A DNA stretch of 13,990 bases, taken from the IMG/VR virus record IMGVR_UViG_2563366982_000004; one strand, 5' to 3'. This DNA comes from a virus (taxonomy: Duplodnaviria; Heunggongvirae; Uroviricota; Caudoviricetes). Numbering within the stretch: position 1 is the first letter of the stretch; each line of letters starts with the position of its first letter. Under the pieces are notes generated by a model. The model did no database searches. It saw only the letters and a list, made by a program, of their open reading frames with translations, and was not told where the DNA came from. Positions 1 to 13,990 of this stretch are shown piece after piece. The position numbers were made by a program, and so were the translations under genes.

Positions 1-858
1 ATGTTGAAACTTAAACAACCTGCTTACACATATGCCGATATGCTGACTAGTTGCCGCGAAGGCATAACCGGTAATCCGGGCTTGTTGCTGAAAGTAAATG
101 AAGCAATAACTGATTTGCAAACACTGGCAGCTTCATATAGCGCATCGGCATCAACTGGTGAGCTTTATACAATACAACCATTGAAAAACAAAGATAAGGA
201 AGACCCTATTGTTGTCGGTCGGTTAAAGAAATCTGACTTTGTTAAGCTTTATGGCAATTATGTTGTTGGGAAGAAAAAGCCTGCTCGAGCTATTTATGAT
301 TCCCTGATTACTGCTGCTAATGAAAAATGTCCATATTGTGGTGGAATTGGGCGCCCTCGAAATTTAGATCATTATTTGCCTAAAGCTTACTATCCTCAGT
401 TTTCTATATTGCCAGTTAATCTGGTGCCTGCTTGTCGAGACTGTAATATGGATGGCAAAGGGGAAGTTTTTGCAAGAAATGAAGCAGAACAGATCATACA
501 TCCCTATTTAGACGATAGCCGTTATTATGATGAACAGTGGATATCGGCTAGATACTTGGCTGGCAAAAATGATGAGCCAGGAGTTATTGAGTATTTTGTT
601 TCTCCACCGGCTGATTGGGATGAAGCACACAAACAAAGAGTGGAAAAACATTTTAACGATTTTGATTTGTCTTTAAGATATTCGAAAGAGGCTAGTGCGA
701 GATTAGTTGTACTTTTAGCTCTATATAACTCAGTGCTACCACTCTCCAGAGATAAAAATGCTGCTAAACACCTTATATTTCAAACAATAATTAATAAATC
801 GCCTTTTGTGAATCATTGGGAACGGGTTATGTGTTTGGCTCTTATGTCAGACTTGTAG
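1..858 (+). CDS. HNH-motif nuclease-family protein, function unknown (may be 5'-partial, since the ORF starts at window base 1)
   Basis: Translation carries CPYCGG...NLDHYLP...VNLVPACRDCN, i.e. CxxC / DH / N / CxxC spacing typical of HNH (beta-beta-alpha-Me) nucleases. Flanked by ~110 aa N-terminal and ~130 aa C-terminal regions I do not recognise. Not McrA and not Lit (no HExxH). Coding region looks A+T-richer than the phage core by eye. Confidence 0.55.
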   Translation: MLKLKQPAYTYADMLTSCREGITGNPGLLLKVNEAITDLQTLAASYSASASTGELYTIQPLKNKDKEDPIVVGRLKKSDFVKLYGNYVVGKKKPARAIYDSLITAANEKCPYCGGIGRPRNLDHYLPKAYYPQFSILPVNLVPACRDCNMDGKGEVFARNEAEQIIHPYLDDSRYYDEQWISARYLAGKNDEPGVIEYFVSPPADWDEAHKQRVEKHFNDFDLSLRYSKEASARLVVLLALYNSVLPLSRDKNAAKHLIFQTIINKSPFVNHWERVMCLALMSDL

Positions 859-912
859 TAATGCTTGAAGTTTTTATTTCTGTTCTAATTTCGTAGTTCC
901 ATTTTATTAAAT

Positions 913-947
913 AGATACCAAGCTCTATGCATAAGAGCTTGGTATCT
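913..947. terminator. Perfect 14-bp inverted repeat (AGATACCAAGCTCT / AGAGCTTGGTATCT) with 7-nt loop, between the convergent HNH gene and int; possible bidirectional terminator
   Basis: Palindrome read directly from the sequence. Flanks are A/T-rich on both sides but there is no clean U-tract, so terminator function is tentative. Confidence 0.35.
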
Positions 948-1126
948 ATTGAAATTAAGCTCAATAACTGATCTGCTCTCCATTGATTAACACGTCACAA
1001 TATTAGTAATGTAACTATTAGGTTTCGAGATTAACTGCGAACTTCTGCTTTTTGCTCAAAGTGGACTGTTTGGTTCTTTTTCAAGTGTAGTTCGAAATTC
1101 AAGGTGGCGTTAAGGCACTTAATGCT

Positions 1127-2253
1127 TTACAACGCTACTTTACTCCATCCTTTACCTCGATCATCATGATAACGATCGGTTTGCTGTTGCGTTTTATGAC
1201 CAAGTAGTTTTTGTGTATTTAAACCCTGTTCTTTATACAAACGTTCTGATAAAGACCTTTGTTCATGAAATGTTGCGGGAGAACCTTCACCCCAGTTAAT
1301 TCCTGCTAAATCCCTCGCTTTACTGAAATTCATCGTCAATGTATTGGCTTTAACCTGCGCGCCGCGTTCAGCCTGTGAGGTAGTACGAAAAAAATGTACA
1401 AGGTATGGGCTGACAGCATAGTCACGGCAGCGGGCTACTACATCGCGCAAACTCCATTTAATCGCATTGAGACGCAGGGAAAGCGGGATGGCGATTTTGC
1501 TCCCGGTTTTTTCCTGGATGACATGGAGATGATCATCCCAAATATCGCTAAATTTCATACGCGAGATATCACCTAACCTCTGGCCGGTAACCAGTGCTAA
1601 CAGCATGGCATTCCCCATATAACGATGACTGGCATCAGCGATATCAAAGATTTTTTGCCACTCTTCAAGACTTAACCGTTGTCGGGTAATTTTTCTTCTG
1701 GGCTGTTTGGTGGCTAATGCCGGGTTATAGCCAGGGGGACTTCTCCGTAGTGTTGCGCCTCTTTGAAAACATCAATCAGTACGGAACGAACTACTTGCGC
1801 CATTCTCGGCTGTCCGGCGGCGATATACTCGTCAAGCAACTGGGCTATATCCCTGACATCAACGGCTGAAATTAACTTCAGTCCTGCTCGTTCCCTGAGC
1901 AAGGATACTGGTTTGGCTTTCTGTTTATAGGTGTTGAGCTTTATATCGCCACTTTTCAGTCTGTCTTCCTGGATTGCTTGATAGCGATCTAACCAGGTTG
2001 ACGTTGTGATTGCTTTTCCTTTGCTGGTTGCGATCCTGTCACTGATAGCTAGAATCTGCCGGGTTCTTTGCTCAGCTAGGCGTGTATTGGCCTCAGTGGC
2101 AATAGCAATGGCTTCAGCTTCGTTTGTGCCCAAAGAATGAAACTTCCCGGTCACTGGATGCTTATATCGCCAATAAACTTTATTTACTTTTCTGCTATAG
2201 AGCGGATACAAGTTCGGGACTGAAACATTATTCTTACGTGGTCTGGCTGCCAT
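1127..2253 (-). pseudogene. int: Lambda-family tyrosine integrase, split by a frameshift into an N-terminal ORF (1714..2253) and a C-terminal ORF (1127..1618)
   Basis: N-terminal ORF (MAARPRKNN...GEVPLAITRH) and C-terminal ORF (...LLALVTGQRLGD...FHEQRSLSERLY...LLGHK...RYHDDRG) together match the lambda Int arm-binding and catalytic domains. The two ORFs are in different frames. Reading through the 1619..1713 gap in the C-terminal frame gives a continuous Int-like sequence (...GYNPALATKQPRRKITRQRLSLEEWQKIFDIADASHRYMGNAMLL). The shift maps to a G5 run at 1734..1738. Confidence 0.8.
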
Positions 2254-2384
2254 TACTTAAAATCCTTTGTAGAATAATAGAATCACTTTTCTTAATGACA
2301 GGAGTAACTAATTCTCCAACTAACTCTGCGTCCTCACGTACTCGCCATAGTCGACCTTGTTTCATTGCCGGTGTGTAGTGGCAC
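2234..2384 (-). pseudogene. xis: Excisionase (xis) remnant, 3' end overlapping the int start; 5' end abuts the IS left terminus
   Basis: Minus-strand frame reads ...MKQGRLWRVREDAELVGELVTPVIKKSDSIILQRILSNGSQTT*, resembling the C-terminal two thirds of lambda Xis (W-VRE ... LLKRIRNG). Stop overlaps the int ATG as in lambda. Only ~50 codons remain before the IS end, so an N-terminal loss is likely but not proven. Confidence 0.45.
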
Positions 2385-3604: not shown

Positions 3605-3636
3605 CTCGGTGGCCAGTTTTTGTTGACCACTTCAAT

Positions 3637-4059
3637 CGCGGTAACTTCATCGCTATCGGCCAGCAGATCCAGCCTTATCTGGAGGACGGAAAATGCTTTC
3701 GCATGGTGCTTAAACCGTGGCGTGAGAAACGCAGTCTTTCCCAGAATGCACTCAGCCATATGTGGTACAGCGAAATCAGTGAATACCTCATCAGCAGGGG
3801 GAAATCGTTCGCTACCGCAGCATGGGTAAAAGATGCTCTCAAACACACATACCTCGGTTATGAAACCAAGGACCTGGTTGATGTCGTAACCGGCGAAATC
3901 ACTACTATCCAGTCGTTACGCCATACCTCCGATCTTGATACCGGAGAGATGTATGTCTTCCTGTGTAAGGTTGAAGCCTGGGCGATGAATATTGGCTGCC
4001 ACCTGACTATTCCGCAGAGCTGCGAGTTCCAGCTGCTGCGCGACAAGCAGGAGGCGTAA
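3637..4059 (+). pseudogene. ninB: NinB-like recombination protein (YbcN-like), 5'-truncated at the IS right end; first in-frame ATG at 3703
   Basis: The frame is open from the IS boundary (RGNFIAIGQQIQPYLEDGKCFRMVLKPWREKRSLSQN...), aligning to lambda NinB from about residue 10 onward (QQI.P...RSLDQN). No start codon or ribosome-binding site remains upstream. Confidence 0.7.
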
Positions 4060-4229
4060 TGGCTACACCGCTTATTCGTGTCATGAACGGACACATCTAC
4101 AAAGTACCAAATCGTCGTAAGCGTAAACCTGAGCTGAAGCCATCCGAAATACCAACACTGCTCGGGTATACCGCCAGCCTGGTTGATAAAAAATGGTTGC
4201 GACTGGCAGCAAGGAGGAATCATGGCTGA
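4059..4229 (+). CDS. ninE: NinE-like small protein (56 aa); absent from the ORF track because it is under 60 aa
   Basis: Hand translation: [59 protein letters not shown] overlaps the ninB stop (TAATG). Position and basic composition match NinE of lambdoid nin regions. Confidence 0.6.
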   Translation: MATPLIRVMNGHIYKVPNRRKRKPELKPSEIPTLLGYTASLVDKKWLRLAARRNHG

Positions 4230-4512
4230 TTTAAGAAAAGCAGCGCGTGGTCGGGAATGCCAGGTAAGAATCCCTGGCGTATGTAATGGCAATCCTGAAA
4301 CGTCAGTACTGGCACATATCCGGCTGGCTGGATTGTGCGGTACCGGTATCAAACCGCCAGACCTGATTGCCACCATTGCATGTTCTGCCTGCCACGACGA
4401 AATCGACCGTCGCACGCATTTTGTTGACGCTGGATATGCAAAAGAATGCGCGCTGGAAGGTATGGCGAGAACACAGGTTATCTGGTTGAAAGAGGGGGTT
4501 ATTGAGGCGTGA
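4222..4512 (+). CDS. ybcO: YbcO-like DUF1364 protein (putative Cys-rich nuclease of the nin region)
   Basis: [34 protein letters not shown]...[11 protein letters not shown] matches the DLP12-type YbcO. AGGAGG lies 6 nt upstream of the ATG at 4222; the track start at 4183 is probably not the real start. Confidence 0.7.
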
Positions 4513-4871
4513 ATACCTACAGCATCACATTACCCTGGCCTCCGAGCAATAATCGCTATTACCGCCATAATCGTGGGCGCACGCACGTCAGCGCAGAGGG
4601 GCAGGCATACTGCGATAACGTCGCCCGAATCATTAAAAACGCAATGCTGGATATCGGCTTGGCTATGCCAGTGAAAATCAGCATTGAGTGCCACATGCCG
4701 GATCGCCGTCGCCGTGACCTTGATAATCTGCAAAAGGCCGCTTTTGACGCACTCACCAAAGCAGGTTTCTGGCTGGATGATGCTCAGGTCGTTGATTACC
4801 GCGTTGTGAAGATGCCCGTTACCAAAGGTGGGAAGCTGGAGCTGACTATCACTGAACTGGGAGATGAATGA
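4509..4871 (+). CDS. rusA: RusA Holliday-junction resolvase
   Basis: [34 protein letters not shown]...[25 protein letters not shown] is near-identical to my recollection of E. coli RusA. GTG start overlaps the ybcO stop (GTGA). Confidence 0.9.
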
Positions 4872-5008
4872 TGTTTGAGTCTTATATGGCAGAGCGTCTT
4901 CGCCGCCGCTGGGTGCGCCTGCGCTTATATCGTTTTCCTGGTTCTGTTTTGACCGATTACCGAATACTGAAGAATTACGCCAAAACCCTGACAGGAGCAG
5001 GAGTATGA
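4868..5008 (+). CDS. ylcG: YlcG-like small protein (46 aa); not in the ORF track
   Basis: Hand translation: [49 protein letters not shown] overlaps the rusA stop. Matches the small ORF between rusA and Q in DLP12-type prophages. Confidence 0.5.
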
Positions 5009-5093
5009 AGTCAGAGATAACAATCAACTAATACTGTTTTGTTGATTTTTGCTTGTAATTGGCGTTCTGGTCTGATTTTTGTGGAGTAAGTTG

Positions 5094-5477
5094 ATGCGTG
5101 ATATTCAGATGGTTCTTGAGCGTTGGGGAGCGTGGGCGGCTAATAATCATGAAGATGTGACCTGGTCGTCCGTTGCCGCCGGTTTTAAGGGATTAATTCC
5201 TTCAAAAGTAAAATCTCGCCCGCAATGTTGTGACGATGACGCGATGATCATTTGCGGGTGCATGGCCCGTCTGAAAAAGAACAACAGCGATTTACACGAT
5301 TTATTAGTAGATTATTATGTATGTGGTATGACATTCATGTCACTGGCAAGTAAGCATTGCTGCTCGGATGGTTATATCGGGAAAAGGTTACAGAAGGCTG
5401 AGGGCATAATTGAAGGGATGTTAATGGCATTAGATATCCGGTTAGATATGGATATCGTTGCTAATAATTCTAATTGA
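5094..5477 (+). CDS. quuD: Late-gene antiterminator Q (QuuD-like)
   Basis: [26 protein letters not shown]...[16 protein letters not shown]... matches the DLP12 QuuD-type Q protein. GGAGTAAG lies upstream of the ATG at 5094; the track start at 5079 is probably an upstream in-frame ATG. Confidence 0.8.
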
Positions 5478-5509
5478 TATGCAATTGTTTACTAAAAGTT
5501 ATTAAAAAT

Positions 5510-5528
5510 GGGGCGTGGAAACGCCCCC
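5510..5528 (-). terminator. GC-rich hairpin (GGGGCGT-ggaaa-ACGCCCC) followed on the minus strand by a U-rich tract; candidate intrinsic terminator for the porin transcript
   Basis: 7-bp G/C stem. The downstream minus-strand sequence is ATTTTTAATAA. On the plus strand it is not followed by a T-run. Confidence 0.4.
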
Positions 5529-5614
5529 AAAATAAAGGGTAATATATAACAGAAGGTTTATATAGTAAGAAGCAAGGTAGTGCTTCTAAAGGAAGTGGCT
5601 TGAGGGCTCCACTT

Positions 5615-5656
5615 ATATGTTGCGGAGGCAAAGCCTCCCGCAACATATCTTTTTCG
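5615..5656 (+). terminator. Rho-independent terminator on the plus strand, downstream of Q (tR'-like)
   Basis: ATATGTTGCGGAGGC-aaa-GCCTCCCGCAACATAT, a ~15-bp stem with one bulge, followed by CTTTTTCG. Confidence 0.55.
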
Positions 5657-5665
5657 TAAGTCAGA

Positions 5666-6748
5666 TTAGAACTGATAAACCAGACCTACAGCGACGATGT
5701 CGTCGGTATCAATACCAGCTGTTTTGGTAAACTTACTATCGTCAATTAAGTTGATTTTGTAATCAACAAAAGTGGACATGTTTTTATTAAAGTAGTAAGT
5801 AGCACCGACATCGACATACTTGACTAAGTCTCGGTCACCATGAACACCAAGGTCTTTACCTTTTGACTGAAGGTAAGCAACAGATGGTCGCAGACCGAAG
5901 TCAAACTGATATTGTGCTACTGCTTCAAAGTTTTGTGCTTTGTTTGCAATATGGTTATTACCAAAAACGGTCATATTCTGAGTTTCAGAATATGTGGTAG
6001 CCAGATAGATATTGTTCGCATCATATTTCAGGCCTGCAGCCCATACTTCCGCATTTTTGCCGGAGGCATTGAATTTGCTCTTACCATAGGCGACCTGACC
6101 GTCAGTGCGATCTGATTTAGCATAGGTTGCACCCACGCCGAATCCTTCATACTCATAAGTAGTGGAGAAACCGAAACCATCACCATTGGCTTCAGTTACG
6201 TCAGTGCGGTCATTTTTACCCTGATACTGAGCAGCAAAGTTCAGGCCATCGACCAGACCAAAGAAGTCGTTGTTACGATAAGTTGCAACACCAGTAGTGC
6301 GACCAGTCATGAACACATCTGTTTGGGTCCAGGTATCACCACCGAATTCTGGCAGGACGTCAGTCCACGCACCGATGTCGTATGCTACACCGTAGTTACG
6401 GCCGTAATCGATTGAGCCGTAATCACCAAATTTCAGGCCTGCAAATGCAAGACGGGTTTTGTCTTTGGAAGAACCTTGAGATTCAGCACGGTTGCCTTTG
6501 AATTCATATTCCCACTGACCGAAACCAGTCAGTTGATCGTTGATTTGGGTTTCACCTTTGAAGCCAAGACGGGCATAAGTAGTATCACCATCATCTGCAT
6601 CATTAGAGGAGAAGTAGTGCTTGGCATTAACTTTCCCGTATAGATCCAGCTTGTTACTGTCTTTATTATAAATTTCAGCTGCCTGAGCAGACATCGCCAT
6701 CAGTACTGATGCAGCTACAGCAGAAATTGCCACTGTTAATTTTTTCAT
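5666..6748 (-). CDS. nmpC: OmpC/OmpF-family outer-membrane porin, prophage-encoded (NmpC / Lc type), apparently intact
   Basis: 360 aa with signal peptide [23 protein letters not shown], a full-length porin body and the C-terminal ...VGLVYQF beta-barrel signature. Matches NmpC/Lc. RBS AAGGG lies upstream on the minus strand. Confidence 0.9.
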
Positions 6749-6990
6749 TGTACGCCCTTTTTTTTGAACTATTATTAAAAAATGATGTCACTGCGCGATA
6801 AATATTCATCTAATCAATGCGATTATTTCAAGATGTAAGTTTTAGTTTCTCATTTAATTTGTGAAGTAGATCTCTATTTTTATCTGAACCTTTTCTATCT
6901 AATCCTATTCATGGCTCTTGTTTGAACGAAAATAAATCTATTAGCTAATTTATATTAATGGCACTTATTTATAAGCGCTCTATAATTCTT
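6749..6990 (-). promoter_or_regulatory. A+T-rich upstream region of the porin gene (probable promoter/regulatory region)
   Basis: Long noncoding A+T-rich tract immediately 5' of nmpC on its coding strand. No individual -35/-10 or regulator site can be assigned by eye. Confidence 0.35.
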
Positions 6991-7175
6991 TAACTTAATT
7001 TAAACAAACTAAAAATAACATCGGAAATTATTCATTGGTTATTTGTTGAAGTTTTCTTATGTATTTGTGGTGGTGTTTTGAACACTCGGTGGCATTCTCA
7101 CAAATATCATTTAGTAGTTTACGTACGTAAAAAATTGGTTATGCTGTTAAGAGTGGTTACTTCGTCACACAGCTT

Positions 7176-7208
7176 AAACCCGCCGTCGAGCGGGTTTTTC
7201 CATTTTTT
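7176..7208 (+). terminator. Rho-independent terminator on the plus strand with no ORF upstream (lambda tR'-like: AAACCCGC-cgtcga-GCGGGTTT + TTCCATTTTTTG)
   Basis: 8-bp stem plus T-tract, resembling my recollection of the lambda tR' hairpin (CCGCC...GAGCGGGCTTTTTT). Lies ~130 bp upstream of the holin gene. Confidence 0.55.
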
Positions 7209-7337
7209 GAGTCTCGATATTAGCTGATAACCCAATACCTGAGTTATTCACTGACTCCGAATCTGTTACGTTTCTGCCTTTATTGCGATACGTAGTATCC
7301 CCTTAATTTACACCCGCTTTGTCTGCGAGGTGGGGTT

Positions 7338-7553
7338 ATGAAATCCATGGATAAGTTAACAACGGGTGTCGCCTATGGCACCTCAGCAGGTAGTGCCGGG
7401 TACTGGTTTTTACAGTTGCTCGATAAAGTCACGCCCTCACAGTGGGCGGCAATAGGTGTGCTGGGTAGTCTGGTATTTGGCTTGCTGACGTATCTGACAA
7501 ACCTTTATTTCAAGATTAAAGAAGATAAGCGTAAGGCTGCGAGAGGTGAATAA
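7338..7553 (+). CDS. essD: Class II holin / pinholin (S21-like, EssD-like)
   Basis: 71 aa, [71 protein letters not shown], with two transmembrane segments as in phage 21 S. Stop overlaps the next ATG (TAATG). Confidence 0.85.
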
Positions 7554-7750
7554 TGTCGCCATCATTACGCAAGGCTATTGCTGCTGCTATTGGTGGTGGG
7601 GCTGTTGCCATAGCGTCTGTGCTCATCACTGGTCCGAGTGGTGACGATGGCCTGGAAGGTGTCAGCTACATACCATACAAAGATATTGTTGGTGTATGGA
7701 CTGTATGTCACGGGCATACAGGAAAAGACATCATGCTCGGTAAAACGTAT
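7553..7750 (+). pseudogene. rrrD: 5' fragment of the SAR-endolysin gene (rrrD / R21-like) retained as the head of the J fusion
   Basis: Only ~66 codons of an expected ~165-codon lysozyme are present; the rest of the lysozyme fold is missing. Confidence 0.7.
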
Positions 7751-10700
7751 AAAGGCAGCAGTAAGGGGCATACCCCGCGCGAAGCGAAGGACAACCTGAA
7801 ATCCACGCAGTTACTGAGTGTGATCGATGCCATCAGCGAAGGGCCGATTGAAGGTCCGGTGGATGGGTTAAAAAGCGTGCTACTGAACAGTACGCCGGTG
7901 CTGGACACTGAGGGGAATACCAATATCTCCGGTGTCACGGTGGTGTTCCGGGCAGGTGAGCAGGAGCAGACTCCGCCGGAGGGGTTTGAATCCTCCGGCT
8001 CCGAGACGGTGCTGGGTACGGAAGTGAAATACGACACGCCGATCACCCGCACCATCACGTCGGCAAACATCGACCGTCTGCGTTTTACCTTCGGTGTGCA
8101 GGCACTGGTGGAAACCACTTCAAAGGGTGACCGGAATCCGTCGGAAGTTCGCCTGCTGGTTCAGATACAGCGTAACGGTGGCTGGGTGACGGAAAAAGAC
8201 ATCACCATTAAGGGCAAAACCACCTCGCAGTATCTGGCCTCGGTGGTGGTGGATAACCTGCCTCCGCGCCCGTTCAATATCCGGATGCGCAGGATGACAC
8301 CGGACAGCACCACAGACCAGCTGCAGAACAAAACGCTCTGGTCGTCATACACCGAAATCATCGATATGAAACAGTGCTACCCGAACACGGCACTGGTCGG
8401 TGTGCAGGTGGACTCGGAGCAGTTCGGCAGTCAGCAGGTGAGTCGTAATTATCATCTGCGCGGGCGCATTCTGCAGGTGCCGTCGAACTATAACCCGCAG
8501 ACGCGACAATACAGCGGTATCTGGGACGGAACGTTAAAACCGGCATACAGCAACAACATGGCCTGGTGTCTGTGGGATATGCTGACCCATCCGCGCTACG
8601 GCATGGGGAAACGTCTTGGTGCGGCGGATGTGGACAAATGGGCGCTGTATGTCATCGGCCAGAATTGCGACCAGTCGGTGCCGGATGGTTTTGGTGGCAC
8701 GGAGCCGCGCATCACCTGTAATGCCTGGCTGACCACACAGCGTAAGGCGTGGGATGTTCTCAGTGATTTCTGCTCGGCGATGCGCTGTATGCCGGTATGG
8801 AACGGGCAGACGCTGACGTTCGTGCAGGACCGGCCGTCGGATAAGGTGTGGACCTATAACCGCAGTAATGTGGTGATGCCGGATGATGGCGCGCCGTTCC
8901 GCTACAGTTTCAGCGCCCTGAAGGACCGCCATAATGCCGTTGAGGTGAACTGGATTGACCCGGATAACGGCTGGGAGACGGCGACAGAGCTTGTGGAGGA
9001 CACGCAGGCCATTGCCCGTTACGGTCGTAACGTCACGAAGATGGATGCCTTTGGCTGTACCAGTCGGGGGCAGGCACACCGAGCCGGGCTGTGGCTGATT
9101 AAAACGGAACTGCTGGAAACGCAGACCGTGGATTTCAGCGTGGGCGCAGAAGGGCTTCGCCATGTGCCGGGCGATGTTATTGAAATCTGCGATGATGACT
9201 ATGCGGGTATCAGCATCGGCGGGCGCGTGCTGGCGGTGAACAGCCAGACCCGGACGCTGACGCTCGACCGTGAAATCACTCTGCCATCCTCCGGTACCAC
9301 GCTGATAAGCCTGGTTGACGGAAGCGGCAATCCGGTCAGCGTGGAGGTCCAGTCCGTCACCGACGGCGTGAAGGTAAAAGTGAGCCGGGTTCCTGACGGC
9401 GTTGCCGGATACAGCGTGTGGGGGCTGAAGTTGCCGACGTTGCGCCAGCGCCTGTTCCGCTGCGTGAGTATCCGTGAGAACGATGACGGCACGTATGCCA
9501 TCACTGCCGTGCAGCATGTACCGGAAAAAGAGGCCATCGTGGATAACGGGGCGCACTTTGACGGCGACCAGAGCGGCACGGTGAATGGTGTCACGCCGCC
9601 AGCGGTGCAGCACCTGACTGCCGAAGTCACCGCAGACAGCGGGGAATATCAGGTGCTGGCGCGCTGGGACACGCCGAAGGTGGTGAAGGGGGTGAGCTTT
9701 ATGCTTCGCCTGACCGTGGCAGCGGATGACGGCAGTGAGCGGCTGGTCAGCACGGCCCGGACGACGGAAACCACATACCGCTTCACGCAACTGGCGCTGG
9801 GGCGGTACACGCTGACAGTCCGGGCGGTAAATGCGTGGGGGCAGCAGGGCGATCCGGCGTCGGTATCGTTCCGGATTGCCGCACCGGCAGCACCGTCGAG
9901 GATTGATCTGACGCCGGGCTATTTTCAGATAACCGCCACGCCGCATCTTGCCGTTTATGACCCGACGGTACAGTTTGAATTCTGGTTCTCGGAAAAGCGG
10001 ATTACCGATATCAGGCAGGTTGAAACCACAGCCCGCTATCTTGGCACGGCGCTGTACTGGATAGCTGCCAGTATCAATATTAAGCCGGGCCATGATTATT
10101 ATTTTTATATCCGCAGTGTGAATACTGTTGGCAAATCGGCATTCGTGGAGGCTGTCGGTCAGGCGAGCGATGATGCTTCCGGCTATCTGGATTTTTTCAA
10201 AGGCCAGATAACTGAATCCCATCTCGGCAAGGAGCTGCTGGAAAAAGTCGAGCTGACGGAGGATAACGCCAGCAAACTGGAGGAGTTTTCGAAAGAGTGG
10301 AAAGACGCCAACGATAAATGGAATGCCATGTGGGGCGTCAAAATTGAGCAGACCGAAGACGGCAGGCATTATGTCGCGGGTATTGGCCTCAGCATGGAGG
10401 ATACGGAGGAAGGCAAACTGAGCCAGTTCCTGGTTGCCGCTAACCGTATCGCGTTTATTGACCCGGCAAACGGGAATGAAACGCCGATGTTTGTGGCGCA
10501 GGGCAACCAGATATTCATGAACGAAGTGTTCCTGAAGTATCTGACGGCTCCCACCATTACCAGCGGCGGCAATCCGCCGGTATTTTCCCTGACACCGGAC
10601 GGGCGGTTGACGGCGAAAAATGCCGATATCAGCGGTAACGTGAATGCGAACTCAGGGACGCTCAATAATGTCACGATTAACCAGAACTGTCGGATTCTGG

Positions 10701-11143
10701 GAAAACTGTCTGCCAACCAGATTGAAGGTGATATTGTCAAAACGGTGGGAAAAGCCTTTCCGAGAAATGGCAGTTATGCCAGCGGTACAATAACGGTCAC
10801 TGTGTACGATGACCAGGCTTTTGACCGTCAGATAGTAATCCCACCCGTTCTGTTTCGCGGTGGTAAGCATGAAAACTTCAACAGCAACAACCAACAGTCA
10901 TACTGGTATTCAACCTGTAAGCTGCAGGTACTGAAGAACGGACAGGAAATCTTTCAGCAACCCGCGACGGATGTCAGCAGGGTATTTTCATCCGTCATTG
11001 ATATGCCAGCGGGACACGGCCATGTCACCCTGACTTTCAATGTTTCTTCATATGGTGCAAATAACTGGACGCCAACGACCAGTATCAGCGACCTTCTTGT
11101 TGTCGTGATGAAGAAATCAACAGCCGGTATCAGTATCAGTTGA
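7553..11143 (+). CDS. In-frame chimera: SAR endolysin N-terminus (codons 1..66) fused to lambda J-like host-specificity / tail-tip protein (codons 67..1196)
   Basis: Residues 1..66 ([66 protein letters not shown]) match the signal-anchor-release domain and catalytic start of the phage 21 / RrrD lysozyme. From residue 67 ([32 protein letters not shown]...) it is lambda J from its third codon to the end. Junction is at about nt 7750/7751. GAGGTG RBS is intact upstream of the ATG. Confidence 0.8.
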
Positions 11144-11161
11144 ATTTTATAACCCAAATAC

Positions 11162-11190
11162 GGGCGCCAGAAATGGCGCCTTTTTTATTT
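11162..11190 (+). terminator. Rho-independent terminator between J and stf (GGCGCC-agaaat-GGCGCC followed by TTTTTTATTT)
   Basis: 6-7 bp G/C stem with a T6 tract immediately downstream on the plus strand. Confidence 0.6.
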
Positions 11191-11201
11191 GTGGAGTGAA
11201 T

Positions 11202-13262
11202 ATGGCAGTACAGATTTCAGGCGTGCTGAAAGACGGTGCAGGAAAACCAATACAGAACTGTACTATTCAGCTCAAAGCAAAGCGTAACAGCACCACGGTA
11301 CTGGTGAACACGGTGGCCTCTGAAAATCCGGATGAAGCCGGGCGTTACAGCATGGATGTTGAGTATGGCCAGTACAGCGTCACCCTGCTGGTTGAAGGTT
11401 TTCCGCCTTCACATGCCGGGACCATTACCGTCTATGAAGGTTCCAGACCAGGTACGCTGAATGATTTTCTCGGTGCCATGACGGAAGATGATGTCATGCC
11501 GGAGGCATTGCGTCGTTTTGAGGTAATGGTGGAGGATGTGGCACGCAACGCTGAAGCCGCCTCTCAGAGCGCAGCGGCAGCAAAGAAATCAGAAACAGCA
11601 GCGGCATCGTCCAGGAACGCGGCGAAAACATCAGAGACGAATGCAGGTAACAGCGCGAAAGCGGCAGCTTCTTCAAAAACAGCCGCACAAAACGCAGCAA
11701 CAGCGGCAGAACGTTCAGAGACAAATGCCCGTGCGTCAGAAGAAGCCTCCGCAGACAGTGAAGAGGCTTCCCGCCGTAATGCAGAGTCAGCCGCTGAAAA
11801 TGCCGGAGTCGCCACCACAAAAGCGCGGGAGGCTGCAGCAGACGCAACAAAGGCCGGGCAGAAAAAGGATGAGGCTCTGTCGGCAGCGACACGAGCTGAA
11901 AAGGCGGCAGACCGCGCAGAAGCCGCAGCGGAAGTGACTGCAGAGCCCTATGCGAATATAGTGCCGCCGCTGCCTGATGTGTGGATACCGTTTAACGATT
12001 CACTGGATATGATTGCGGGTTTTTCTCCGGGCTATAAAAAAATAGCTATTGGTGACGATGTGGTTCAGGTCGCCAGTGATAAACAGGTTAATTTCAGTCG
12101 CGCATCAACGGCAACATATATCAACAAATCTGGCGAACTGAAAACGGCGGAAATTAATGAGCCGCGATTTGAGTGTGATGGCCTGCTTATTGAGGGACAA
12201 AGAACGAACTACATGCTCAATTCGGAAAGTCCAGCCAGCTGGGGGAAGTCATCAAACATGGATGTGCCCGAAACCGGGACGGATAGTTTTGGTTTTACTT
12301 ATGGAAAGTTTGTCTGCAACGATTCTCTGGTTGGGCAAACTTCGGCTATTAATATGGCATCAATTGCTGCAACAAAGTCAGTTGATGTCTCAGGCGATAA
12401 CAAGTACGTGACAACCTCATGCCGTTTTAAAACAGAACGACAGGTAAGGTTACGTATACGGTTTGATAAGTATGATGGTAGTGCAACAACTTTTCTTGGC
12501 GATGCGTACATTGATACGCAAACGCTTGAAATTAATATGACAGGTGGTGCTGCCGGCAGAATTACGGCACGAGTCAGGAAGGATAAGACCACGGGCTGGA
12601 TTTTTGCAGAGGCAACGATTCAGGCAATTGATGGTGAGTTAAAAATAGGCTCTCAGATACAGTATTCTCCTGAGCAGGGTGGGGCAACAGTATCTGGTGA
12701 CTATATTTATCTTGCCACCCCACAAGTAGAGAATGGGCCGTGTGTATCATCATTTATTATTTCAGGAGGCAGCGCAACGACAAGAGCCAGTGATTTGGTT
12801 AGTATCCCCACCAGAAATAATCTTTATAAGTTACCATTTACTTTTTTACTTGAGATTCATAAAAACTGGGATATTGCACCAAACGCCGCACCCCGCGTGT
12901 GGGATATAGCAGCAGCCAATACCGGGCAATCAGCAATTGCAGCAATCAACAGAGGTAGTGGTAAGTTATATATGAGTCTGTCAAACCCTTCAGGCTCGTA
13001 TGTTAATAGCGCAGCGACAGATGTATTTGCAGAGAAAACCACATTTGGATGTATTGCAAAAGCTGATGGTCACTTTCATGTGGTGACAAATGGTAAAGCG
13101 GTTAATGAAGTTTATTGTGAATATAATGGCGTGACCGCTGATAAAAATATCCGATTTGGAGGGCAGACGAATACTGGAGAACGACATCTGTTTGGCCATA
13201 TTCGCAATTTCCGCATATGGCATAAAGAATTAAATGACAGGCAATTAAAAGAGGTCGTATGA
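11202..13262 (+). CDS. stf: Side tail fiber protein (Stf-like): lambda-type N-terminal tail-attachment domain, Ala/Ser-rich repeat linker, and a distinct C-terminal putative receptor-binding domain
   Basis: N-terminus MAVQISGVLKDGAGKPIQNCTIQLKAKRNSTTVLVNTVASENPDEAGRYSMDVEYGQYSV... matches the lambda Stf N-terminus. Probable start is the ATG at 11202 (GGAG 5 nt upstream); the track start at 11196 is GTG. The C-terminal ~440 aa are unlike lambda Stf and end ...RFGGQTNTGERHLFGHIRNFRIWHKELNDRQLKEVV. Confidence 0.8.
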   Translation: MAVQISGVLKDGAGKPIQNCTIQLKAKRNSTTVLVNTVASENPDEAGRYSMDVEYGQYSVTLLVEGFPPSHAGTITVYEGSRPGTLNDFLGAMTEDDVMPEALRRFEVMVEDVARNAEAASQSAAAAKKSETAAASSRNAAKTSETNAGNSAKAAASSKTAAQNAATAAERSETNARASEEASADSEEASRRNAESAAENAGVATTKAREAAADATKAGQKKDEALSAATRAEKAADRAEAAAEVTAEPYANIVPPLPDVWIPFNDSLDMIAGFSPGYKKIAIGDDVVQVASDKQVNFSRASTATYINKSGELKTAEINEPRFECDGLLIEGQRTNYMLNSESPASWGKSSNMDVPETGTDSFGFTYGKFVCNDSLVGQTSAINMASIAATKSVDVSGDNKYVTTSCRFKTERQVRLRIRFDKYDGSATTFLGDAYIDTQTLEINMTGGAAGRITARVRKDKTTGWIFAEATIQAIDGELKIGSQIQYSPEQGGATVSGDYIYLATPQVENGPCVSSFIISGGSATTRASDLVSIPTRNNLYKLPFTFLLEIHKNWDIAPNAAPRVWDIAAANTGQSAIAAINRGSGKLYMSLSNPSGSYVNSAATDVFAEKTTFGCIAKADGHFHVVTNGKAVNEVYCEYNGVTADKNIRFGGQTNTGERHLFGHIRNFRIWHKELNDRQLKEVV
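11565..11940 (+). repeat. Low-complexity Ala/Ser/Glu/Lys-rich repeat region inside stf (degenerate SETNA / AAxxA-type units)
   Basis: Translation ...AAKKSETAAASSRNAAKTSETNAGNSAKAAASSKTAAQNAATAAERSETNARASEEA.... The GC-rich repetitive DNA also generates the spurious overlapping ORFs seen on both strands here. Confidence 0.5.
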
Positions 13263-13537
13263 AAGATTTAACTTTGAAGTTTCATGACAAACTGCAGTTT
13301 AAGGCCTTCCTGTCATCTCTTGGCTGGGCGGAAGATGAAGACCTCCAGAATAAACTGTTAGTTGATGAAATTGGTTTCACCTACACAGAAACAGGGGTAA
13401 CAGAAGAGGGAGAACCTGTCTGTATCCGGAATGATGGTTATTTTGTCAACATTCGCATTCTTGATGACTTGTTTGATGTTTCTGTATTCTCTGATTATGT
13501 CGTGGAGCTGGAAACACCGCTTCGGGAATGGAGCTGA
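13259..13537 (+). CDS. Hypothetical acidic 92-aa protein, translationally coupled to stf (ATGA overlap); function unknown
   Basis: ATG overlaps the stf stop. No similarity I can recognise to lambda Tfa or T4 gp38-type fibre chaperones. A+T-rich. Confidence 0.45.
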   Translation: MKDLTLKFHDKLQFKAFLSSLGWAEDEDLQNKLLVDEIGFTYTETGVTEEGEPVCIRNDGYFVNIRILDDLFDVSVFSDYVVELETPLREWS

Positions 13538-13549
13538 AAGGAGGAAATA

Positions 13550-13990
13550 ATGGATATAAGCCCCTTACTTCATGCACTTTGTGCTGTGGCTGCGCAGATA
13601 CTGGTTGGTCTTTTTACCGGAAACTGGGCTTACGGAGCGATAGCCGGTTGTACGTTCTTCATTGCGCGTGAACATACCCAGGCAGAATATCGCTGGATTG
13701 AAATGTTCGGGCATGGCAAGCGAATGAATATGCCGTGGTGGGGCGGTTTTGATCCGCGTGCTTGGGATGTGGCAAGCCTGATGGATTTTGCTGTGCCGGT
13801 GGTGGCGTGTCTGCTGGTCTGGCTGTTGGTTAATCGTGGGCGAAAAAAGGTGAGCTGTATATGCAACGGAGGAAGAAACCCCGTTGCTGGAAGCCAGGAA
13901 AAAGTATCGGGTGTTGCTGTCCTCGGATGTTGTGCTAATTGGGTGATAACAGATCCTGTGTATGGGAGTTTCCCTTTTTGCGTGCGTTGA
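13550..13990 (+). CDS. Hypothetical small membrane protein (two or three predicted hydrophobic helices); 3' boundary uncertain, stop coincides with the window end
   Basis: Strong RBS AAAGGAGG 7 nt upstream of the ATG. Hydrophobic segments LLHALCAVAAQILVGLFTGNWAYGAIAGCTFFIA and VASLMDFAVPVVACLLVWLLV. The last ~45 codons are Cys/Gly-rich and look less protein-like. Confidence 0.4.
   Translation: MDISPLLHALCAVAAQILVGLFTGNWAYGAIAGCTFFIAREHTQAEYRWIEMFGHGKRMNMPWWGGFDPRAWDVASLMDFAVPVVACLLVWLLVNRGRKKVSCICNGGRNPVAGSQEKVSGVAVLGCCANWVITDPVYGSFPFCVR

Follow-up and report, generated by a model that had tools for sequence, protein, structure and literature searches.

The window, by which is meant the whole 13,990-nt stretch of DNA analysed here, contains on its + strand an ATG-initiated ORF of 1196 codons (with a product of ~131 kDa), in which residues 1-66 of a phage-21/RrrD-type SAR (signal-anchor-release) endolysin are followed by residues 3-1132 of the tail-tip protein J (Table 1). 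The ORF is preceded by essD, which codes for a pinholin with the dual-start motif MKSM and is now the sole complete lysis gene in the element, and is followed by a tail-fibre ORF with a prophage tail-fibre N-terminal domain (PF08400).

Table 1. Features of the locus, with window positions and the evidence behind each assignment
Feature	Position	Strand	Evidence
quuD, Q-type late antiterminator	5094..5477	+	identical DNA so annotated in M1/5 and MS10858
Candidate late-promoter-like site (6958-6986) and terminator-like hairpin (7176-7206), 5' of essD	6958..7206	+	consensus scan
essD, S21-type class II holin (pinholin), 71 codons, intact	7338..7553	+	PF04971, E=2e-35; essD annotation in all relatives
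Chimeric ORF, endolysin 5' fragment and J in frame	7553..11143	+	RefSeq WP_001556898.1, "phage attachment tail tip protein J"
rrrD/R21-type SAR endolysin, 5' 199 nt, codons 1-66	7553..7751	+	DNA, Pfam and PDB matches
SAR segment, residues 8-26	7574..7630	+	Kyte-Doolittle and composition
Deletion junction, TA common to both parents	7750..7751	+	base-by-base alignment, BLAST end points
J tail-tip/host-specificity gene, codon 3 to stop	7750..11143	+	DNA, Pfam and PDB matches
Tail-fibre ORF, 688 codons, 3' of J	11196..13262	+	PF08400, E=4.8e-67; collinear with 4A7 18865-20793

Residues 1-68 of the fusion match the R21 lysozyme (PDB 3hde) with E=1.2e-35, the RrrD structure 4zpu being also matched, and residues 67-1195 match residues 3-1131 of lambda gpJ (PDB 8iyk) with E=0. 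Judged from sequence, both homologies are far above chance, and the domain assignment can be taken as already settled by identity to solved structures. At the DNA level, the endolysin fragment lies in a stretch that matches the holin/endolysin region of phage 4A7 at 98.8% identity. The N-terminal part has the marks by which SAR endolysins of this type (T4-like "true lysozymes") are recognised, a SAR domain and an E-X8-D-X5-T catalytic motif (PMC9239132): residues 8-26 form the top-scoring 19-residue Kyte-Doolittle window of the whole protein (2.11), are 58% Gly/Ala/Ser and align 1:1 with R21, and the motif is present in the translation as E35-X8-D44-X5-T50. The lysozyme fold is incomplete, since only positions 3-45 of the 125 in the PF00959 profile are matched, and the homology to 3hde and 4zpu ends at residue 68 of a fold that takes ~165 residues when complete.

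The J part has a complete domain set, composed of FNIII-A, Phage-tail_3, two Ig-like domains, the tail-tip fibre and the C-terminal receptor-binding domain, and matches six Pfam J families (E 1e-35 to 1e-43). Its receptor-binding C-terminal part is 99-100% identical to J of phage 4A7 (NC_049946), versus 38-45% to lambda J. A J gene normally has its own start after the tail-tip genes M-L-K-I and yields a protein assembled into the tail; in the window there is no J start codon, no J RBS and no upstream tail gene, all of which are present in 4A7 and in the icd prophage of SE15. A 611-codon antisense ORF inside J was considered as a gene and rejected as a compositional feature, since equally long antisense stop-free runs (705-850 codons) occur in J of lambda and of 4A7.

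The preliminary description of this DNA had read the ORF as about 66 endolysin codons running in frame into J from its third codon, and this is exact to the base, as endolysin DNA homology continues up to 7751 and J homology begins at 7750, both in alignments and in BLAST end points. The breakpoint alignment and microhomology search that it had proposed, made against 4A7, K-12 rrrD, lambda and PhiR55_1, place the joint at a 2-nt TA overlap, formed on the endolysin side by the third base of codon Y66 and the first base of the next codon, and on the J side by base 3 of codon 2 and base 1 of codon 3. By calculation, roughly 15% of random joins should show microhomology of at least 2 nt, and the TA overlap is no more than chance would give; the prior for an in-frame join is 1/3. 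A few bases from the joint, both parents have a 6-nt GGTAAA, which was rejected as mediator of the join, ACGTAT being retained beyond it.

The same description had named two findings that would undo its reading, namely that the 66 N-terminal residues belong naturally to J in related intact phages, or that the junction is an assembly error, and had suggested a search of related genomes for the junction. Of 5426 complete E. coli genomes, 79 contain the junction; these were independently assembled in many laboratories and include named ST1193 strains, and the exact fusion protein is found on at least 1000 public contigs. In ~4900 other genomes the endolysin and J halves are separate genes, rrrD matches stopping at 7751 and J matches starting at 7750; in 3240 records the J homology from base 198 of the ORF (window position 7750) belongs to a J gene of ordinary form, 1132 codons long and preceded by its own gene I, and no record spanning the junction was found among 50,697 phage records. 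Nothing in favour of either possibility was found beyond the fact that RefSeq merely names the protein gpJ, and both are refuted by the separate genes elsewhere and by the junction shared among the 79 genomes, which leaves them a probability close to nil.

The junction is flanked on both sides by DNA collinear with 4A7 and with the SE15 icd prophage, and the segment absent from the window is exactly 17,255 bp long in each of them. It holds the rest of the endolysin gene, Rz/Rz1, cos, terminase, and the head and tail genes through I, so that the loss of the whole head and tail assembly region, as originally claimed, is borne out against each relative, and the order S-R-Rz-terminase-head-tail-J is the one seen in both of them when intact. 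With this essential segment lost relative to an intact relative, the element is a defective ("grounded") prophage, and it is of the 4A7/SE15 type. A literature search on phage 4A7/4C10 found no paper, so that the viability of 4A7 is attested by its database record only.

Identity to 4A7 is 99.5% over window positions 3635-7751 (4A7 43211-47327), 97.0% over 7750-13129 (15413-20789) and 99.9% over 13122-13990 (23322-24190). Within these alignments, a block of ~95% identity runs from 7687, inside the endolysin fragment, across the junction to ~10450 in J, its stretch in the endolysin fragment containing five differences from 4A7, all synonymous. This uneven identity bears on the possibility that illegitimate recombination between two co-resident prophages, for instance in tandem at icd, gave rise to the junction. 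Such an origin would agree with the int/xis end being of e14 type (88.6% to K-12 intE versus only ~63% to the 4A7 integrase) while the rest of the element is of 4A7 type, and with the drop in identity from ~100% in the left flank to ~95% in J. However, the 95% block begins 65 nt upstream of the junction and crosses it, as expected of a single parent whose R-to-J region formed one mosaic block; 3' of J, identity to 4A7 is back at 99-100% through the fibre, small ORFs and sitDCBA, which follow one another as in the phage, and mosaic int modules are normal among lambdoid phages. A two-prophage origin is therefore unlikely, and the parent is best described as a mosaic relative of 4A7, not 4A7 itself.

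The junction lies at the same locus beside sitDCBA in 6/6 carriers examined, attachment at icd being demonstrated for MS10858 only. The fusion ORF is identical in five of these six, four of which have only 3 SNPs relative to the window in 10,356 bp; overall, the sampled carriers show 0-3 SNPs per 10.3 kb, none of them in the fusion ORF, and no frameshift or stop, although none is expected at 0-3 SNPs per 10 kb. With so little divergence the open frame is uninformative on selection, and a dN/dS or disruption-frequency test was dropped because the carriers are nearly invariant. The junction has a single origin, and the lineage that carries it is clonal complex 14 (ST14, ST550 and ST1193). The lineage-specific left arm of the element (window 1-2300) is found in 81 genomes, against the 79 that have the junction. 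Further decay is found in the same element: J is interrupted by an IS4 insertion in at least two carriers (FDAARGOS_536 and AREA_492), intE is frameshifted, nested IS elements occupy the place of the immunity region, cI/cro are missing, and in ST1193 O has a frameshift.

The chimera is thus probably the scar of one illegitimate (RecA-independent) deletion of 17,255 bp in an icd-integrated, sitABCD-carrying lambdoid prophage, and a neutral by-product of it. A break after endolysin codon 66 would have been joined to a break at J codon 2/3 through the TA overlap, with loss of the endolysin's catalytic body, both spanins (Rz/Rz1), cos, terminase, every head gene and the tail genes as far as I. Lysis and particle assembly would both have been disabled by this, with the cargo genes (the porin gene and sitABCD) left in place. 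The frame was probably kept by chance, and the endolysin start codon, its RBS and the holin overlap would in this way have come to head a 1196-codon ORF, whose product, if there is one, would consist of an inactive one-third of a lysozyme plus a SAR membrane segment on a J with no tail to join, and is presumably without function. One clonal lineage, comprising M1/5-like strains and pandemic ST1193, would then have inherited the scar, and the ORF would be still open because the event is recent in that lineage, not because it is maintained.

The translation signals count against this view of a mere scar. The ATG of the fusion shares one base with the TAA of the 71-codon holin gene (TAATG), a GAGAGG Shine-Dalgarno sequence lies 5' of it at 7541-7546, and positions 7235-7634 are 100% identical to 4A7, so that the upstream RBS and the coupling to the holin have survived unchanged, as had been proposed. 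With these signals and the upstream holin gene intact, the fusion ORF would be translated whenever a late transcript is made. The homologous lysis operon of DLP12 is reported to be transcribed in K-12, which also counts against a scar, and its SRRz operon is regulated by Q, RpoE and Hha (PMC7918800). Read-through into essD and the fusion would require the quuD product. A promoter and terminator consensus scan of 5000-7800, compared with shuffles, gave fewer promoter-like sites than the shuffles; the candidate promoter-like and terminator-like pair 5' of essD may serve only as a lead, and Rfam, at gathering thresholds, gave no RNA family anywhere in the window.

These intact signals could alternatively mean that a functional new gene has arisen in the fusion, with late-operon expression through its own QuuD or through the Q of a superinfecting lambdoid phage. 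The SAR segment, which is also intact, would export the J receptor-binding protein and tether it at the inner membrane or in the periplasm, where the product, alone or with the pinholin, could block a receptor, keep out or abort related phages, or change the envelope or the output of vesicles. Every J domain is present, the receptor-binding one included, quuD and essD are intact, and the genotype resembles that of a K-12 DLP12 mutant with holin and without endolysin and spanins, which shows 2.4-fold more vesiculation (PMC7918800). On the other hand, an in-phase join has a prior of 1/3, no sequence variation is available to reveal constraint, and J is split by IS4 in the two or more carriers mentioned above. 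The receptor-binding domain of lambda J recognises surface-exposed loops of its receptor LamB, not the periplasmic face, and Sec export of a cytoplasmic-folding protein of 1130 residues is doubtful. The immunity/pR region, the normal driver of Q, is gone, and the fusion has no defence-family match (PADLOC defence profiles gave 0 families at E<=0.001 for the fusion and nothing for a 92-codon ORF). A functional gene is consequently very unlikely, and the evidence favours a passive scar over an expressed product. It is more improbable still that the late-operon stub (pinholin EssD, SAR-anchored J and tail fibre) is an exapted module benefiting the ST1193 lineage; if it were, Q antitermination, by the resident QuuD or an incoming related phage, would yield a receptor-binding protein tethered to the membrane and a pinholin with no endolysin beside it, with possible phage exclusion, abortive infection or changed envelope or vesicle behaviour.

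As a scar, the chimera is a case of routine, ordinary prophage decay and no new kind of biological system. The analysis nevertheless corrects the annotation of a "tail tip protein J" in over a thousand public assemblies, which is an endolysin-J chimera, and provides a base-level record of how, in the lineage to which pandemic ST1193 belongs, a sitABCD-carrying phage was disabled for lysis and for virion assembly. The junction is also a compact lineage marker that could be scored by PCR across 7700-7800, and the element offers a defined genotype (a lone pinholin and a SAR-tagged J, with neither endolysin nor spanins) for envelope or phage-exclusion effects.

Compared with R21 of phage 21 and RrrD of K-12, residues 1-66 of the fusion are homologous (E=1e-35) and contain both the Gly/Ala-rich SAR segment and the motif E-X8-D-X5-T, but J replaces the ~100 C-terminal residues of the lysozyme fold, for which reason no muralytic activity is expected. 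With lambda gpJ (PDB 8iyk), to whose residues 3-1132 its residues 67-1196 align, the fusion has all six Pfam J domains in common, and differs in its foreign 66-residue membrane-anchor N-terminus, in the absence of the partner tail genes and in a receptor-binding end that is of the 4A7 or "A8 gpJ" (PDB 9wca) type, not of the lambda type. The closest whole elements are 4A7 (Bievrevirus bv4A7) and the SE15 prophage, with the same gene order and near-identical DNA on either side of the junction (99.5% from the hydrolase through endolysin codon 66, and 97-99.9% on the side of J, fibre and sitDCBA), which keep the full 17,255-bp lysis-to-tail segment and have endolysin and J as separate genes. NC-SV of strain NC101 (PMC12803456), a lambdoid prophage likened to the present one by its icd attachment site and lambda-like gene order alone, may also be related.

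A literature search combining DLP12, essD and rrrD found nothing. DLP12, Rac, e14 and Qin of K-12 are described as grounded or defective lambdoid prophages of E. coli (PMC6379469). Like them, the window prophage is lambdoid, deletion and IS insertion have cost it essential modules but not its cargo genes, and, as in several K-12 remnants, tail-fibre genes are kept beside its right end. It has in common with DLP12 the series ybcN-ninE-ybcO-rusA-ylcG-quuD, a porin gene and essD, at 88-96% DNA identity, but DLP12 lies at argU and has a complete S-R-Rz/Rz1 module, whereas the window prophage lies at icd, carries sitABCD and has only the holin whole. Unlike in the K-12 defective prophages, its deletion ends inside two genes and has made a long in-frame chimera of them.

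Structure matches and Pfam confirm, at the coordinates given there, the in-frame endolysin-J fusion proposed in the preliminary description. Among solved structures, residues 1-68 of the fusion protein match lysozyme R21 of phage 21 (PDB 3hde, E=1.2e-35) and likewise K-12 RrrD (PDB 4zpu), and residues 67-1195 match residues 3-1131 of lambda gpJ (PDB 8iyk, E=0); Pfam finds six J-specific domains and only positions 3-45 of the 125 in the phage lysozyme profile. Retained in the N-terminal part are the SAR segment, which is weakly hydrophobic and rich in Gly/Ala (residues 8-26 are the top 19-residue hydrophobicity window of the whole protein), and the lysozyme motif, E35-X8-D44-X5-T50, as defined in PMC9239132. 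The protein thus has the SAR segment and catalytic motif of a SAR endolysin without its complete fold, and the domain set of J without its genomic context, and should be classed neither with functional endolysins nor with functional tail-tip genes. No defence-family match was found for it. There is a one-base overlap between the fusion ATG and the stop codon (TAA) of the upstream holin gene, and a Shine-Dalgarno GAGAGG lies six bases 5' of this ATG. A 611-codon ORF runs antisense within J (8534-10369, minus strand); it was rejected as a gene, since antisense stop-free runs are equally long in the J genes of lambda and of phage 4A7 (705-850 codons), and arises from the composition of the J coding sequence.

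Coordinates of the features in the window
Feature	Position	Strand	Length	Remarks
HNH endonuclease gene	1-858	+	285 codons	complete; matches candidate defence protein PDC-M01B of PADLOC, E=1e-114
intE, e14-type	1127..1618 + 1714..2253	-		split in two ORFs; frameshifted in M1/5, ST1193 annotation
OmpC/NmpC-type porin gene	5666-6748	-	359 residues	intact; PF00267, E=2e-151
Class II holin gene (essD), phage-21-type	7338..7553		71 codons	PF04971, E=2e-35
Fusion ORF	7553..11143	+	1196 codons	ATG start
Tail-fibre ORF	11196-13262	+	688 codons	continuous in window

Alignment, which the preliminary description had proposed for placing the breakpoint and detecting microhomology, puts the joint at 7750/7751. 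By megablast against phage genomes, endolysin homology stops at 7751 and J homology begins at 7750, and base-by-base comparison with 4A7, K-12 rrrD, lambda and PhiR55_1 gives the same breakpoint. The endolysin parent reads ...GGTAAAACGTATA up to the joint and CCGAAG beyond it, the J parent ...GAATGGG before it and TAAAGGCAGC after it, and the window ...GGTAAAACGTATAAAGGCAGC, so that TA is the sole overlap of both parents. Because an overlap of at least 2 nt is, by our calculation, expected at ~15% of random joins, the join is classed as illegitimate, with little or no microhomology. Both parents also contain, a few bases off, a 6-nt GGTAAA that was not used as the joint. The frame is kept because the joint falls at codon position 3/1 in both genes (prior 1/3).

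Phage 4A7 (NC_049946, Bievrevirus) contains every window gene in phage order: hydrolase, ybcN, ninE, ybcO, rusA, ylcG, Q and an opposite-strand porin; holin, endolysin and Rz, then terminase, head, tail, J and fibre; and small ORFs, sitDCBA and an integrase adjoining an icd fragment. Strain SE15 carries a chromosomal prophage at icd whose genes follow this order too. Window 3635-7751 is 99.5% identical to 4A7 43211-47327, 7750-13129 is 97.0% identical to 15413-20789, and 13122-13990 is 99.9% identical to 23322-24190, the last two blocks being separated by an IS in 4A7. With both junction sides anchored, the missing segment measures exactly 17,255 bp against 4A7 and against SE15. It held the endolysin from codon 67 to its end, Rz/Rz1 and three small ORFs, cos, the genes for terminase, portal, protease, decoration protein and capsid, every tail gene as far as I, and the first two J codons. 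The gene order and the loss of the head and tail region were read correctly at the outset, and one deletion is shown to have turned S-R-Rz...J into S-(R'::J). The join would have formed by RecA-independent end joining or slippage; a conceivable, speculative source of the break is a terminase cut at cos, inside the lost segment, in the unexcised prophage.

A 121-nt query centred on the joint (coverage at least 80%) is covered in 80 records, representing 79 of 5426 complete E. coli genomes, and a 1-kb query gives the same carrier count. Split matches, with rrrD ending at 7751 and J beginning at 7750, occur in 4945 genomes; with a whole-ORF query every J gene outside the carrier set begins at ORF base 198; and among 50,697 phage records there is no match across the junction. 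A natural N-terminal extension of J is thus contradicted by the separate halves, and an assembly error by the recurrence in complete genomes. Among six carriers examined, M1/5, MS10858, CUVET20-PYO2, FAH and EC8 have an identical fusion ORF, encoding RefSeq protein WP_001556898.1; over 10,356 bp (3635-13990), comparison with the window gives no difference for M1/5 and 3 SNPs for each of the other four. All eight named ST1193 strains (MS10858, MS10711, MS10860, MS8320, MS8324, MCJCHV-1, 09-02E and AVS0096; PMC11488385) carry the junction, and a left-arm marker (1-2300) occurs at ≥99% in 81 genomes, a set that is essentially that of the junction. From the carrier counts, the near-identity of carriers and the shared left arm, the junction is real, of single origin and clonally inherited. 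In FDAARGOS_536 (locus L001, 12050-13395) J is interrupted near window 10282 by an IS4, which has a 13-bp target duplication, and AREA_492 likewise has an IS4 there; this is secondary decay that the chimeric ORF has undergone in the lineage. 21AR0173 may share the insertion, from its split pseudogene annotation. The exact chimeric protein is on at least 1000 public contigs, named J every time, and PGAP names both halves only where further disruption forces pseudogene calls. No paper on this junction was found.

Window 4835-7634 is essentially 100% identical to 4A7; from 7687 the retained endolysin fragment has five differences, all synonymous, and ~95% identity extends past the junction and into J as far as about 10450, beyond which it is mostly 99-100% again, with a second ~95% stretch at 11050-11650. 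Intact rrrD genes of other E. coli match 7690-7751 at 100%, the same endolysin allele. This pattern and the shared allele argue against post-deletion decay, and a single mosaic parent, with an R-to-J block from a lineage other than that of 4A7, would produce it. A join between two separate prophages is kept as a minor rival because the int/xis end is e14-type rather than 4A7-type, although the ~95% block, which starts inside the endolysin fragment and crosses the junction, weighs against it, less than against decay. The last ~230 J residues (10450-11143) are 99-100% identical to 4A7 J and only 38-45% to lambda J; their best solved match is 'A8 gpJ 713' (PDB 9wca, E=1e-255), and their receptor specificity may depart from lambda's LamB. 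In the tail fibre, PGAP calls on identical DNA an N-terminal-domain pseudogene and a separate 'head spike fiber domain' CDS, a split that varies between genomes; 4A7 has an IS insertion directly past this gene.

The chimera product is probably without function, since two-thirds of the lysozyme fold is missing, J has no tail to join and is dispensable in the IS4 carriers, and the normal targets of its receptor-binding domain are surface loops of an outer-membrane protein. With hardly any substitutions accumulated in the lineage, the open frame is uninformative. Both the RBS and the coupling to the holin gene are unaltered, and quuD and essD are intact; if a late transcript is made, the chimera would be translated and might be inert, toxic or exapted, an exapted pinholin/SAR-J module being testable but highly improbable. 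The homologous DLP12 lysis operon of K-12 is transcribed, under the influence of Q, RpoE and Hha, and vesiculation is higher in a DLP12 mutant with only the holin left (PMC7918800). Upstream of essD, a scan that was not significant against shuffles gave a promoter-like site (6958-6986) and a terminator-like hairpin (7176-7206); no Rfam families were found.

The ST1193 element runs from icd, an AAA ATPase, the HNH endonuclease, frameshifted intE and xis, through an IS3/IS30/IS110 nest, frameshifted O, P, an inverse autotransporter and a hydrolase, to the window's genes, sitDCBA and an icd fragment; its repressor/cro/pR region is gone. In MS10858 (locus L012, 8268-14256) nested IS3, IS30 and IS110 replace the recombination and immunity region, and a large inverse-autotransporter gene occupies the ren-emrE-ybcK place of SE15 and 4A7. 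As the ATPase gene precedes the HNH gene in the interval from icd to the prophage integrase, the two probably form an anti-phage module at the attL end. intE is 88.6% identical to K-12 e14 intE but only ~63% to the integrase of 4A7; the left end therefore derives from another lambdoid module than the remainder. At 3634/3635 the right end of the IS3-family ISEc52 adjoins a 5'-truncated ybcN, where the otherwise 100% identical M1/5 RefSeq chromosome has 3,189 bp more (an Ig-like/inverse-autotransporter fragment, an alpha/beta hydrolase and the ybcN start), so that the window's source has an IS-adjacent deletion relative to the M1/5 assembly; the window's own arrangement is in no complete genome of the collection. 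Given the frameshifts in int and O and the loss of the immunity region, several events have inactivated the element, the R-to-J deletion among them; the element lacks excision, immunity, replication, lysis and morphogenesis but has kept its cargo.

What is new is one precisely mapped case of a well-known kind of event, of use as an annotation correction (the protein named J is an endolysin-J chimera) and as a lineage marker. The porin gene lies between the Q antiterminator and holin genes as in DLP12, and also in the viable phage 4A7. The element is a grounded lambdoid prophage, of the kind covered in PMC6379469, and a deletion derivative of the icd-integrating 4A7/SE15 type; by site, not by sequence, it is likened here to NC-SV of NC101, a lambdoid prophage at icd (PMC12803456).
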